From a virus (lineage: Duplodnaviria > Heunggongvirae > Uroviricota > Caudoviricetes): a DNA stretch of 32,559 nt. Every line of letters begins with the position of its first letter. The first letter of the stretch is position 1. Under the pieces are notes generated by a model that saw nothing but the letters and a program-made list of their open reading frames with translations, searched no databases and was not told where the DNA came from. The position numbers and the translations under genes were made by a program. The DNA is taken from IMG/VR virus record IMGVR_UViG_2675903654_000020, positions 1-32,559 of that record, one strand, 5' to 3'. Below, piece by piece: positions 1,794 to 6,735 of this stretch.

Positions 1794-2510
1794 TTAGATT
1801 ACTTTTACGCCTATAAAGGTGTAATCATCCATTATGTTTTTCTCAATCCTTTTTCTTAAACTGTTCGCAAAAGACGTCGGTGAGAGCATTGTTTTCTCAG
1901 AAAACCTTGGTCTGACATCCCAATGCTTATAAGCACCATCGGACATTGCATAAATTTGAAGAGAACCATTAAAAATTAGTTGATTAATCGGAAAAGACAT
2001 TAATTCAAAATTCAGCTCTGTTGTATTTGATAAAGCATTTGTTAGGATTGAAGATAAACGCTCTTTATGATTTCTTAAATTGCGCAATTTATGCTCACCA
2101 GAATCAAGAAGTTCTTGATACCTCGTTTGATCAGTAGTTAACTGATTTAATTTGTTGTTTTTATTAAAGTATACACGGCAATCACCGGAATGGCCAATTA
2201 ACACTTCATTTTTTTTGATATGAACAATTGTTAATGTTGTGGCAGTGCTAATATCTAAATTATCAATTTCTTTTTTAGCCGAATGAAATGCACTTTCAAT
2301 TGAGAAAAAGGAAGTGTCTAGCGCGTGTTTAATACCACGAATGGCAGCATGAGACGCAAGCATTGAATTTTCAGAGGAACCAACGCCATCAGCTACTGCA
2401 AAGACAATGTTAAAATCGCTATCAAAAGATGGCGGTAAATAAAAGTCTTCATTTTCTTTTTTTTGGGGTTGTTTTAGGCTAAAACAAGCCATTTCAATTA
2501 TGTTCTTCAT
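1794..2510 (-). CDS. PP2C-family Ser/Thr protein phosphatase (238 aa)
   Basis: PP2C-like motifs: VADGVGS metal-binding Asp/Gly motif, GHSGDCRVY, MSDGAY, C-terminal DD; ATG with GAGGT RBS; overlaps kinase stop by 17 bp; AT-rich codon usage. Confidence 0.75.
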   Translation of the reverse strand: MKNIIEMACFSLKQPQKKENEDFYLPPSFDSDFNIVFAVADGVGSSENSMLASHAAIRGIKHALDTSFFSIESAFHSAKKEIDNLDISTATTLTIVHIKKNEVLIGHSGDCRVYFNKNNKLNQLTTDQTRYQELLDSGEHKLRNLRNHKERLSSILTNALSNTTELNFELMSFPINQLIFNGSLQIYAMSDGAYKHWDVRPRFSEKTMLSPTSFANSLRKRIEKNIMDDYTFIGVKVI

Positions 2511-3288
2511 TATTTACCTCCCCCATCACTTTTAAAAAATCTTCCAATAACTCCTGTGCGCTCTGATATCGTTCTTCAGGCCAATGGGCGCAACATTTAG
2601 CAATCAATCTTCTTAATTTTTCACTTCTTTCTGTTGGATATATATCAGTGATAATTTTGCCTATAGCGAATATGTCGCTTTGGAAAGAAAAAAGACCGCT
2701 CTCATGTATTTCAGGTGCTCGATATCCGTCTGTACCCATGTGATTGGGCTTAAATTTTGTTTTGACTTCAGCCCGTAGGGTATCTCTATCTTTTACCAGG
2801 CCAAAATCAGATATCTTATATTTCCCATCGGCGTAATAAAGGATGTTTCCTGGTTTTAAATCACGATGTATGTAGTTGTTTTCATGTATGGTGATAATTC
2901 CTTTTAAAATCTGAATGACAGCAGACTTCCTCTCTGCGTCATTCATTCCATTGTTGATGGCTTCATATAAGTTACATTCTGCCAGCTCCATGACAAAATA
3001 AGGTTTATCACCATTTGTATTAAACAAAACTATTGGTGCTATTGAATCATAGTTTATTCTATTGAGTTTGCATTGTGTTTTGATCTCAACTAAAAAACGC
3101 TGTCTTAAATCAGCCAGCTCTTTTATGGCTGTGTTGTCAAAGTCCGGGCAAGGTGAAAAGTATTTGCGAGCATATGTGGTCACGTTGGTCTGGGCTAAAT
3201 TATAGACTTCAACCTTATATACTTCGCCAAACCCCCCTCGTCCTAAACTGCGACCATCTTTAAGTAAATAATTACCGCACCGATCCAC
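2494..3288 (-). CDS. Hanks-type (eukaryotic-like) Ser/Thr protein kinase, kinase domain only (264 aa)
   Basis: Gly-rich loop GRGGFGEV, conserved Lys in ARK, catalytic loop HRDLKPGN, DFG (SDFGL), APE (YRAPE); GTG start with GGGGG RBS; AT-rich. Confidence 0.8.
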   Translation of the reverse strand: MDRCGNYLLKDGRSLGRGGFGEVYKVEVYNLAQTNVTTYARKYFSPCPDFDNTAIKELADLRQRFLVEIKTQCKLNRINYDSIAPIVLFNTNGDKPYFVMELAECNLYEAINNGMNDAERKSAVIQILKGIITIHENNYIHRDLKPGNILYYADGKYKISDFGLVKDRDTLRAEVKTKFKPNHMGTDGYRAPEIHESGLFSFQSDIFAIGKIITDIYPTERSEKLRRLIAKCCAHWPEERYQSAQELLEDFLKVMGEVNNEEHN

Positions 3289-3584
3289 GGCGCCCCCCTA
3301 ACTCTAAGTAATGGATTGATAAGACTGGAAAAACATATATATCTCCTTTTATACACGTTTGCTATTTTTATTGCAATGCTCCACCTGTGGAGGACCAGGA
3401 AGGGCGATATTCTGATGAGTCTTTAACTGATTGAATTCGCTCCGATGCGGGACTTCCCACATCGGGAGAACATTACCACTAGGGGTAAAAACGATTTGCG
3501 GGAAAAGGATAGTTAAGTAGAATTGCTGCGGGTGCTTGAGGCTATCTGTCTCAGGCATGCCACCAAAGGCAGATAGAGAAAAGC

Positions 3585-3650
3585 CCCAGTTAACATTACG
3601 CGTCCTGCAAGACGCTTAACATTAATCTGAGGCCAATTTCATGCCAGACA
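3585..3650 (-). ncRNA. predicted Sok-like antisense RNA of the hok locus (position approximate)
   Basis: Inferred from Hok/Sok family architecture (antisense RNA overlapping the mok start region); boundaries not resolved from sequence. Confidence 0.25.
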
Positions 3651-3853
3651 CATGTAGGTTAGCCTCTTACGTGCCGAAAGGCAAGGAGAAGCAGGCTATG
3701 AAGCAGCAAAAGGCGATGTTAATCGCCCTGATCGTCATCTGTTTAACCGTCATAGTGACGGCACTGGTAACGAGGAAAGACCTCTGCGAGGTACGAATCC
3801 GAACCGGCCAGACGGAGGTCGCTGTCTTCACAGCTTACGAACCTGAGGAGTAA
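3641..3853 (+). CDS. Mok-like overlapping reading frame of the hok locus
   Basis: ATG 3641 in frame with hok and ending at the same stop, as in hok/mok loci. Confidence 0.4.
   Translation: MPDTCRLASYVPKGKEKQAMKQQKAMLIALIVICLTVIVTALVTRKDLCEVRIRTGQTEVAVFTAYEPEE
3698..3853 (+). CDS. hokD: Hok-family type I toxin (51 aa), HokD/RelF-like
   Basis: Protein MKQQKAMLIALIVICLTVIVTALVTRKDLCEVRIRTGQTEVAVFTAYEPEE matches my recollection of HokD; single TM helix; leader homologous to hok mRNA; intrinsic terminator downstream. Confidence 0.8.
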   Translation: MKQQKAMLIALIVICLTVIVTALVTRKDLCEVRIRTGQTEVAVFTAYEPEE

Positions 3854-3921
3854 GAGACCCGGCGGGGGAGAAATCCCTCGCCACCTCTGATGTGTCAGGC
3901 ATCCTCAACGCACCCGCACTA

Positions 3922-3945
3922 AACCCGCTTCGGCGGGTTTTTTGT
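3922..3945 (+). terminator. Rho-independent terminator at the hok mRNA 3' end
   Basis: Stem CCCGC-TTCG-GCGGG followed by a run of 7 T. Confidence 0.7.
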
Positions 3946-4128
3946 TGCGCGCTGAATACGCAGTGTGAAAAATAACCATATATTTGATTATATACACAAC
4001 AAAAAATAAAAGTCATTGTACCTGCACATTAAATAATCAAATATACGGCGTGAAATAAATATTTTTCAGATTAATATTTTTGTCTCTATGTGGATATAAC
4101 CGTTTGTACTTATAAATCTGGAGGCATC

Positions 4129-4341
4129 GTGAAAAAAATAAAGAAACTATTTAGTAGTAAATACGCAGTCATACGTCGTGATGACCTGTCAGTTATAGTC
4201 GAAATGGATTACTTCCCTGAAACCCCAAAATCAATGATGTATCGTAATGGTCGAAAGGCAATTTTTTTACCGATGAGGGTAAGTGACATTATGGGAAATG
4301 ATAAACTGCTGGATGAATTGCGAGTCAGAGCATCCTGTTAG
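4129..4341 (+). CDS. hypothetical small protein, possibly Rem-like (Qin prophage synteny)
   Basis: GTG 4129 with GGAGG RBS 4 nt upstream; the longest ORF (from 4090) would be 83 aa; position between hokD and nin/Q genes resembles the Qin-like order as I recall it. Confidence 0.45.
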   Translation: MKKIKKLFSSKYAVIRRDDLSVIVEMDYFPETPKSMMYRNGRKAIFLPMRVSDIMGNDKLLDELRVRASC

Positions 4342-5853: not shown

Positions 5854-5879
5854 CTCAATCTGTTATCCGGGGCTATATT
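5850..5879 (+). promoter_or_regulatory. candidate late promoter pR' (TTGACT -35, 18-bp spacer, TATATT -10)
   Basis: -35 TTGACT at 5850-5855 overlapping the Q stop codon, -10 TATATT at 5874-5879. Confidence 0.5.
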
Positions 5880-5940
5880 CCTCACGCGCCAGCAAAATCT
5901 GGCGTCGGGATTGGCGTCCTGGATAGAGACCGCGACAGAT

Positions 5941-5963
5941 ACACGCCGCGAGCGTGTTTTTTA
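5941..5963 (+). terminator. intrinsic terminator downstream of the candidate late promoter (tR'-like)
   Basis: Stem ACACGC / GCGTGT with 5-nt loop followed by TTTTTT. Confidence 0.55.
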
Positions 5964-6123
5964 TTGTCGTATGCACGCGCACATCTGAATTATGGTGGGC
6001 TGTGTGGGGGCGGAGAGATCCGCGCCGGTCGGTTTCCCGGTTACGCCAACCCTGCACAGTTCACCACCAGACGATTGGCGTCGTCGGTGGTGAGTTATTA
6101 AGAAACCACCAGAGGGCGTCATT

Positions 6124-6735
6124 ATGACAACTCAAATTTCTGTTGAAACTCTCTCCCCTATCACCCATAACCAGATTCCTGTTATTACCACCGAACTTTT
6201 GGCGCAGCTTTACGGCACTGAGCCGGTGCGTATTCGCCAGAATCATCATGAGAACAAAGCACGCTTCGTTGAAGGGAAACACTTTTTCAAAGTTGTTGGT
6301 AATGACCTTAAAGAATTGCGGGTAGCTTTAAACTACTCACAAAATTTGCGGGTTACTTTAAGTAACTCACAAAATTTGCAACCATCTTTAAGAGGGTTAC
6401 AAATTTCCCCGAAAGCCCGCTCCCTTATCCTCTGGACAGAACGAGGCGCAGCCCGTCACGCCAAAATGCTCGAAACCGATCAGGCGTGGGATGTGTTCGA
6501 AAAACTGGAAGACTGCTATTTCAGACAAAAGGATCTGTCAGCGCCAGCTTCATGCCAGAAAAGTTACGACACGCGAGTTCTCTGTTATCAGCGAGGCGGT
6601 GTCACTGTTTCCACAATTCAGTTGCGGGATGATGATATTGTTATTTCCCTTGAGTCATGGCTGGAACTGGCGAGAGCCAATGGTTGGTTTGTTGTTCGCA
6701 GAGATAAACTGGTGGAAAGGCTGATGCAGCTTTAA
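6124..6735 (+). CDS. ORF6N-domain (Bro-N/antirepressor-like) protein
   Basis: N-terminal ORF6N-like region (IPVITTELLAQLYGTEPVRIRQNHHENKARFVEGKHFFKV) and conserved LILWTERGAARHAKMLETDQAWDVFEKLE segment; ATG with AGAGGG RBS. Confidence 0.65.
   Translation: MTTQISVETLSPITHNQIPVITTELLAQLYGTEPVRIRQNHHENKARFVEGKHFFKVVGNDLKELRVALNYSQNLRVTLSNSQNLQPSLRGLQISPKARSLILWTERGAARHAKMLETDQAWDVFEKLEDCYFRQKDLSAPASCQKSYDTRVLCYQRGGVTVSTIQLRDDDIVISLESWLELARANGWFVVRRDKLVERLMQL
6318..6377 (+). repeat. two tandem 30-bp units (25/30 identical) inside the ORF6N gene, with a degenerate third copy to about 6406
   Basis: Units 6318-6347 and 6348-6377; each contains a near-palindrome (for example GTTAC-TTTAA-GTAAC); in frame, encoding a 10-aa repeat. 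Confidence 0.6.

Follow-up and report, generated by a model that had tools for sequence, protein, structure and literature searches.

A complete hok/mok/sok cassette in a lambdoid prophage

The window analysed here, a 32,559-nt stretch of tailed-phage DNA, carries at positions 3487-3946 a type I toxin–antitoxin cassette, hok/mok/sok of the hokD/hokW subfamily, that is intact and self-contained. It belongs to a lambdoid prophage, where it occupies part of the nin (early-right) region. The gene order of the prophage is DUF1627, the hok locus, DUF1367, YbcO, Q-like DUF1133, holin, terminase, portal, capsid, tail and baseplate. All of the elements that a preliminary description of this DNA had assigned to 3487-3946 were found, well above chance, and these limits match the edges of the conserved module in other genomes, with both the 5' and the 3' end intact, unlike in E. 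coli K-12. Each element is whole, and the cassette is free of IS insertions, stop codons and truncations. Its features are listed here in order along the window.

3495-3500, + strand: candidate -35 of the hok promoter, TTTGCG, a weak match (spacer of 17 nt)
3518-3523, + strand: hok promoter -10, TAGAAT (predicted from conservation of sequence and position)
3530-3944, + strand: full-length hok mRNA, about 415 nt (Rfam model start at 3530; terminator end near 3944)
3530-3541, + strand: tac (translational activator), the 5' terminus of the mRNA; its partner is fbi in the minimum free energy (MFE) fold of the full-length RNA, and ucb in the isolated leader and the Rfam consensus
3579-3649, - strand: predicted Sok RNA, about 71 nt (mapped from the 933W sokW annotation)
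3581-3587, + strand: ucb (anti-Shine-Dalgarno), AAGCCCC; partner of tac in the 5' hairpin and of the mok Shine-Dalgarno (SD) region in the full-length MFE fold
3629-3632, + strand: mok SD, GAGG; counterpart of the GAGG mok SD of R1 (PMC9841398)
3641-3853, + strand: mok ORF, 70 aa; the hok frame extended by 19 N-terminal codons
3661-3656, - strand: Sok promoter -10, TAACCT (conserved hexamer)
3660-3665, + strand: dcb, AGCCUC; binds the mok SD when the RNA is open (Rfam consensus structure, constrained fold)
3684-3679, - strand: Sok promoter -35, TTGCCT (17-nt spacer)
3683-3688, + strand: hok SD, AAGGAG (read from the sequence; the homology to K-12 hokD begins here)
3698-3853, + strand: hok ORF, 51 aa plus stop (Pfam HOK_GEF)
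3836-3838, + strand: Tyr47 codon TAC in CUUACGAA; candidate TadA A-to-I editing site (Y to C)
3861-3882, + strand: 3' stem-loop (seen in folds; compensatory changes in alignments)
3903-3915, + strand: fbi (fold-back inhibition) element, CCUCAACGCACCC; pairs with 3530-3541 in the MFE fold
3921-3944, + strand: rho-independent terminator of the hok mRNA (stem 3921-3940, then a T run)

The 51-aa product had been described as a Hok protein of the hokD type, and database comparison agrees: it scores 82.9 bits against Pfam HOK_GEF (PF01848; E 1.2e-23, cutoff 22) and is 100% identical to K-12 HokD/RelF (WP_000813254.1). The overlapping mok frame, likewise anticipated, starts with an ATG at 3641, about 57 nt upstream of the hok start, and continues in frame to 3853 in the same layout as mokW of phage 933W. 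The N-terminal extension of Mok (M-x-x-x-C/I-R-L-A-S-Y...) is found in most of 45 related loci. Placement of mok in a frame other than that of hok was ruled out here, in 933W and in the R1-type locus, although a few relatives (e.g. Rac 442/2) do have this arrangement.

Upstream of the cassette lie genes for a Ser/Thr kinase and a PP2C phosphatase, on the strand opposite to hok. The kinase matches the PADLOC families mad6, PD-T4-6 and Stk2 and resembles anti-phage kinases; no PADLOC model matches Hok. One Escherichia phage record was matched by the kinase, phage Flotzy (39.7%) is the best of the matches listed, and 933W, with its Stk, is not among them. Downstream, the ORF that follows hok (4090-4341) was considered as a homolog of K-12 Rem, and it has the same length (83 aa), yet tblastn found no similarity between the two. 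Farther on, positions 5873-6735 hold a P1 immI-like c4/isrK RNA cluster and an ORF6N antirepressor-like gene.

A dedicated promoter predicted for hok

The hok transcript probably starts at about G3530, close to the start near 3529 that had been predicted earlier. The TAGAAT hexamer proposed as its -10 is present, but it had been placed at 3514-3519, 4 bases away from its actual position. A TAnnnT hexamer stands at -12 to -7 from the conserved GGG start in 44 of 45 diverse loci, as TAGAAT (13), TATATT (12), TATAAT (8), TACAAT (3) or other variants, and its position is kept even in loci with unrelated DNA farther upstream. The candidate -35 is conserved in cq9, O157 Z1504, 933W and E423, and the promoter region differs from that of the 933W copy by 2 bases in about 50. 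A generic sigma-70 promoter scan, with a threshold of 9 of 12 matches over the -35 and -10, called neither the hok nor the Sok promoter. Both pairs of hexamers fall under this threshold, in the case of hok because the -35 is weak, and we therefore used phylogenetic conservation instead. This comparison provides strong evidence for a putative dedicated hok promoter with its start at G3530.

The preliminary description had proposed that hok either depends on its own promoter or is silent. The first half of this proposal is supported by the comparison, whereas silence appears unlikely, since the -10 is fixed relative to the predicted transcript start in all but one of these loci. The kinase and phosphatase genes diverge from hok and so cannot drive its transcription. 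At the other end, the strong 3' terminator recognised earlier consists of an 8-bp stem (5 GC pairs), a 4-nt loop and a T run. It is the sole + strand terminator in the region, and none was found on the + strand between 3250 and 3529. The 415-nt transcript folds with a predicted energy of -178.1 kcal/mol (z = -9.2), and 0 of 100 shuffled sequences were as stable.

A conserved RNA switch

A leader homologous to that of the plasmid R1 hok mRNA was among the elements first noticed at this locus, and Rfam RF01794 matches 3530-3703 over the full model with 118.2 bits (gathering score 59; E 1.4e-26). The model starts at GGGUGCUUGAG and ends at the hok AUG. This 'sok' match falls on the sense strand of hok, so what it attests is the hok leader; Sok itself is not detected by it. 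The leader motifs quoted in support of the R1 likeness, GCTTGAGGC (3534-3542), GGCAGA (3568-3573) and AGCCCC (3582-3587), are shared with an IncFII plasmid locus. The Hok protein of that plasmid locus matches what we take to be the R1 Hok sequence.

The first 12 nt of the hok mRNA (GGGUGCUUGAGG) pair with CCUCAACGCACCC to form the tac/fbi clamp, which has a predicted energy of -21.5 kcal/mol against -14.3 +/- 2.7 for shuffled 3' UTRs. We fetched 61 loci encoding relatives of Mok and Hok from Escherichia, Shigella, Kluyvera, Citrobacter, Photorhabdus, Pantoea, Erwinia and others, and compared the 44 that were distinct and usable. Their mean 5'-3' duplex energy is -21.1 kcal/mol, against the same -14.3 +/- 2.7 for shuffled 3' UTRs, and in nearly all of them the stretch that pairs best with the 5' end is found 45-56 nt beyond the hok stop. 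In an alignment of related loci (A1), pairing over the tac/fbi helix and the inner 5' hairpin combined reaches 91.5%, compared with 41-54% when the partners are slid by 1-3 columns. Alignment pair 4-429 is compensatory (UA in 28 rows, CG in 12) and involves a base that is bulged in the alternative tac/ucb helix, which is itself 95.6% paired across loci. The dcb columns are invariant. The tac, fbi and sok elements, whose mapping by alignment to known loci was suggested at the outset as a check, are all located, with the fold-back pairing conserved.

In the full-length fold the mok SD is sequestered. When the open (tac/ucb) form was forced by constrained folding, it cost 13.0 kcal/mol in the full-length RNA and 3.7-4.1 kcal/mol with fbi removed, and the partner of the mok SD is then dcb, in agreement with the Rfam consensus. 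Unconstrained MFE folds of 3'-truncated RNAs did not flip to the open form and instead had a 5' metastable-like hairpin. Since the truncated RNA does not flip by itself, the refolding step in our model is taken from R1, whose mechanism and element names we follow (PMC9841398). By analogy with the same system, the 3861-3882 stem-loop is expected to cap the processed hok mRNA.

A predicted Sok antisense RNA

A Sok promoter, which was to be sought by alignment, is present on the minus strand as TTGCCT-17-TAACCT and is conserved in A1. The TTG of its -35 is invariant (on the + strand, the CAA of CAAGGAG); within the -10, A2 is invariant and T6 is at least 90% conserved. Alignment with 933W sokW places the start of Sok at about G3649. 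The predicted RNA starts with a 5' tail that can pair with the mok AUG and SD, continues into a long hairpin and stops at about 3579 with a CUUUU tail; its fold is that of SokW (-30.6 kcal/mol, z = -5.0). To judge from primers YO-421/422, the 'pro-less' sokW mutant made in Sp5 replaced this very TAACCT hexamer. A cis-encoded Sok gene with its own promoter lies over the mok initiation region, and from the sequence we predict that it is expressed.

Relatives in 933W, Sp5, K-12 and R1

The mokW/hokW/sokW locus of the Stx2 phage 933W (AF125520), which has carried these annotations since 1999, is 93.6% identical in nucleotide sequence to the window over 94% of the query locus. The two share the promoter region, tac, the leader, an in-frame mok, the Sok hexamers (TTGCCT / TAACCT), the Sok hairpin and fbi. 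HokW is 92% identical to the window Hok, with a C-terminus of VDYESEK against TAYEPEE. The 933W copy has a different allele of the Sok 5' tail and mok N-terminus, with a YUNR loop (CUGA) at the place of the CCAG of the window. The homology ends at window position 3920, and 933W is without the terminator hairpin of the window. The 933W copy also differs in location: it lies near attR, beyond the tail genes, whereas the window copy lies upstream of Q, within the nin region.

In the Sakai prophage Sp5, the toxicity of HokW is neutralised by SokW, which is transcribed from its own promoter and acts partly via RNase III and Hfq (PMC8621323). Both RNAs are present in uninduced lysogens; upon RecA-dependent induction, SokW vanishes and HokW builds up in the inner membrane, and deletion of the locus halves phage release (PMC8621323, Takada et al. 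2021). Since the position of the Sp5 copy in its phage is a different one, near attR, this induction phenotype may not transfer to the location of the window copy.

These observations bear on an alternative in which hok is driven mainly by antiterminated early-right read-through, as for relBEF in K-12, with the local promoter, Sok and the RNA switch being secondary. HokW production in Sp5 does require RecA-dependent prophage induction (PMC8621323), the 3250-3529 interval offers no + strand terminator to stop such transcription, and hok is co-oriented with upstream replication genes and downstream Q in all of the at least 17 loci with recognisable neighbours. Yet hokW mRNA is already present before induction in Sp5 (PMC8621323), the genes immediately upstream of the window hok are on the opposite strand, and the -10 keeps a constant spacing to a conserved 5' end that must stay free as tac. 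We consider it very improbable that read-through is the main driver of hok; it would complement the canonical hok/mok/sok mechanism, which we favor, and not replace it.

The K-12 counterpart is hokD (relF), the third gene of relBEF in the Qin prophage. Its site is also a lambdoid nin region upstream of a Q gene, and it shares with the window the hok SD, ORF, 3' stem-loop, fbi and terminator (98.9% identical). The homology runs rightward from window position 3684 (query base 198), just before the hok SD. To the left of this junction, K-12 has relBE where the window has the hok promoter, tac and ucb, the start of mok and all of sok. The window therefore departs from a Qin-type relBE-hokD arrangement, having the leader, mok and sok but, as first described, no relB or relE anywhere along its length. 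HokD is toxic, and hok is enriched in prophages (bioRxiv 10.1101/2025.08.07.668861).

Plasmid R1 hok/sok (parB) and its IncF relatives have the same order of elements as the window: promoter, tac, ucb, Sok target and mok SD, continuing with an in-frame mok, dcb, hok, the 3' hairpin and fbi. The R1-type locus belongs to the same Rfam family, and its Sok promoter, TTGCGC-17-TATCCT, occupies the same place as TTGCCT-17-TAACCT in the window. The differences are an R1 Hok about 45% identical to the window Hok, a leader whose tac hairpin has an apical loop larger by 18 nt and whose Sok-target hairpin is shorter, and a YUNR loop that is present in the R1 type and missing from the window. R1 hok/sok is plasmid-borne and is used for post-segregational killing.

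The full-length module is the usual form

Matches to the 460-nt query occur in 4943 of 5426 complete E. coli genomes, at a median of 2 and a maximum of 10 places per genome. The full-length module, defined as a single place covering at least 80% of the query, is present in 3907 of the 5426, and the relBE-hokD arrangement in 1163. The form without relBE is therefore the usual one and the K-12 form a truncated minority. The PGAP label for the ORF is hokD, in thousands of genomes. In genomes with recognisable neighbours, the hokD-type locus is flanked on one side by replication genes (DnaC-like, DUF1627) and on the other by nin/Q genes (DUF1367/YbcO/DUF1133-Q or DUF968/RusA/Q), and it has the same orientation as both.

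The slot upstream of hok is a variable stretch of the lambdoid nin region. The preliminary description had seen the kinase and phosphatase as standing in the place of relBE; the two genes are as described, but these counts do not support relBE-hokD as the reference form. The kinase-PP2C-hok block itself occurs in 33 genomes, of which strain E423 is the best match (99.2%), with different flanks.

A variable Sok-target segment

Variability among 16 hokD-type loci is highest at 3630-3659. The whole mRNA differs from that of E423 at 14 positions, 11 of which belong to 3634-3654, a 21-nt segment that spans the 5' tail of Sok, the start of mok and the target loop; 11 of these 21 positions thus differ, against about 0.8% elsewhere. 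Divergence so local against such a background points to segment exchange or selection and not to relaxed constraint. The target loop, which directly follows the mok AUG, has the sequence CCAG, and the closest relatives have CUAG, from which the window differs by a single U-to-C change. The YUNR U-turn motif is consequently absent at the Sok-target loop of the window, whereas it is present at the same spot in 38 of 58 related loci. In R1 this motif is reported to be decisive for fast Sok binding (PMC6562991).

The lost motif raises the question of whether the window locus could be a relic, complete-looking but dead, with promoters that are too weak or regulation impaired by loss of the U-turn. 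Both promoters are weak by consensus, the YUNR motif differs from the nearest alleles by that one change, and hok loci on the K-12 chromosome are reported to be inactivated, or inactive in post-segregational killing (10.1101/2025.08.07.668861; PMC12214031). Against this, none of the cassette's elements is interrupted or shortened, the hok -10 and the structural pairs are visibly conserved and covarying, and the Sp5 copy, 93.6% identical to the window, is functional (PMC8621323). Moreover, the exact 55-nt allele is common to 56 genomes, IAI1 among them, and a defect in Sok binding would raise the toxicity of the locus instead of silencing it. We judge a decayed locus to be improbable, and favor a working hok/mok/sok cassette that follows the canonical mechanism.

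It is possible, although we hold this only tentatively, that 3634-3654, where prophage modules that are otherwise almost the same carry quite different alleles, is a swappable specificity cassette by which each Sok would neutralise only its own hok, so that co-resident copies would act as independent, prophage-specific addiction or lysis-timing devices.

Proposed mechanism and role

The anatomy of the window locus is that of a canonical hok/mok/sok system, and it very probably operates as one, with the dynamics drawn by analogy from R1 and Sp5. We envision a scenario in which a weak constitutive promoter (-10 TAGAAT) would yield a stable hok mRNA of about 415 nt from G3530. In the full-length RNA, tac would be paired with fbi and the mok SD held by ucb, permitting neither translation nor Sok binding. 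Slow 3' trimming would then remove fbi, allowing tac to refold onto ucb and exposing the mok SD, and translation of mok from 3641 would lead to coupled translation of hok from 3698. The stronger convergent promoter (3684-3656, minus strand) would meanwhile supply an unstable Sok RNA of about 71 nt (3649-3579), which would pair with the mok initiation region of the processed mRNA, blocking translation and leading to cleavage by RNase III. Once the supply of Sok ends, be it because the element is lost, transcription is shut off or the prophage is induced, Hok would be made, enter the inner membrane and depolarise or lyse the cell. For the window copy we infer transcript stability, 3' processing, refolding, RNase III cleavage, toxicity and the role in the prophage from these better-known systems.

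That role is likely to be an aid to lysis and phage release on induction, as in Sp5, and/or prophage addiction or abortive infection. Earlier work cited in 10.1101/2025.08.07.668861 found no post-segregational killing by chromosomal hokA, hokB and hokC. Antiterminated early-right read-through at induction may in addition occlude the convergent Sok promoter and thereby time the release of Hok. A further layer of control could act on the mRNA itself: K-12 hokD mRNA is edited by TadA to about 6% at the Tyr homologous to Tyr47 (PMC12214031), making the TAC at 3836-3838 a candidate for the same edit.

Implications for the hokD family

The hok/mok/sok cassette of the window was already known. In view of the 1999 annotation of 933W, the PGAP hokD labels and the characterisation of Sp5 in 2021, it carries little weight as a discovery. 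What changes is the perspective, in that relBE–hokD of K-12 is a truncated derivative, and the full-length, self-regulated module is common in lambdoid prophages, most of which, in E. coli, have a Hok/Sok cassette in their early region. Because the full-length module is the common form, annotators should expect mok, Sok and an RNA switch beside 'hokD' calls. For cross-talk among multiple copies of hok/sok, the allele without YUNR and the hypervariable segment recognised by Sok provide small leads.

Results and Discussion

The most divergent part of the hok locus (3487-3946, + strand) is the region in which the antisense RNA Sok would meet its target. Variability across 16 hokD-type loci reaches its maximum at 3630-3659, and the copy in E423, an E. 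coli strain, differs at 14 positions, 11 of them within 3634-3654, while being 99% identical otherwise. An identical 55-nt allele is carried by 56 of 5426 genomes.

3630-3659, hypervariable segment, spanning the Sok 5' tail, the mok start and the target loop

The target loop (3644-3647), which directly follows the AUG of mok, the frame that starts ahead of hok, reads CCAG and does not fit the YUNR pattern of a U-turn. At this position CUAG is found in the nearest alleles and CUGA in phage 933W and in the R1-type locus. With CCAG, mok codon 2 also becomes Pro instead of Leu, and YUNR is likewise missing from this spot in about one third of related loci. Some relatives (L005, which is Rac 442/2, L020-L022, L027, L037 and L052) have an in-frame stop 12 codons 5' of hok. 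The annotated mok and hok of Rac 442/2 lie in different frames, so a simple N-terminal extension of Hok does not describe mok in every case.

Within the toxin frame, codon 47 is homologous to the site at which the K-12 hokC, hokD and hokE mRNAs undergo A-to-I editing that converts Tyr to Cys (PMC12214031).

3836-3838, hok codon 47, TAC (Tyr), a candidate editing site within CUUACGAA, a context like that recognized by TadA, the editor of K-12 hokD mRNA

At the 3' end, homology to the 933W/Sp5 copy ceases just past the fbi element (933W locus ~3277-3300, corresponding to position 3920 onward), and the terminator hairpin present here and in most chromosomal copies is absent from that copy.

Divergent from hok lies a kinase/phosphatase pair.

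2494-3288, - strand, Ser/Thr kinase
1794-2510, - strand, PP2C phosphatase

Hits of 136, 120 and 98 bits link the kinase to the PADLOC anti-phage families mad6, PD-T4-6 and Stk2, respectively, so the two genes likely constitute a prophage-borne defence pair. The Stk-carrying phage 933W is absent among the phage matches listed for the kinase. Among 5426 E. coli genomes, 33 carry the kinase-PP2C-hok block; its best match, in E423, lies between flanks that differ from those found here.

Downstream, an 83-aa ORF (4090-4341) occupies the position of rem, also 83 aa, in K-12; no resemblance to Rem was detected, and neither Pfam nor PADLOC gave a match. Judged from Rfam and domain matches, the region just 3' of the Q-like DUF1133 gene looks like a P1/P7 immI-like c4/ant module (5873-6735).

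5873-5925, c4-a1b1 (Rfam)
5886-5962, isrK (Rfam)
5988-6071, C4 antisense RNA (Rfam)
6124-6735, antirepressor-like ORF with an ORF6N domain, following the C4 antisense RNA

Finally, the match to Rfam RF01794, named 'sok antitoxin', lies on the hok sense strand, where it covers the mRNA from its 5' terminus as far as the hok AUG (3530-3703). Annotation based on this family would misplace Sok, assigning it both the wrong strand and the wrong extent.
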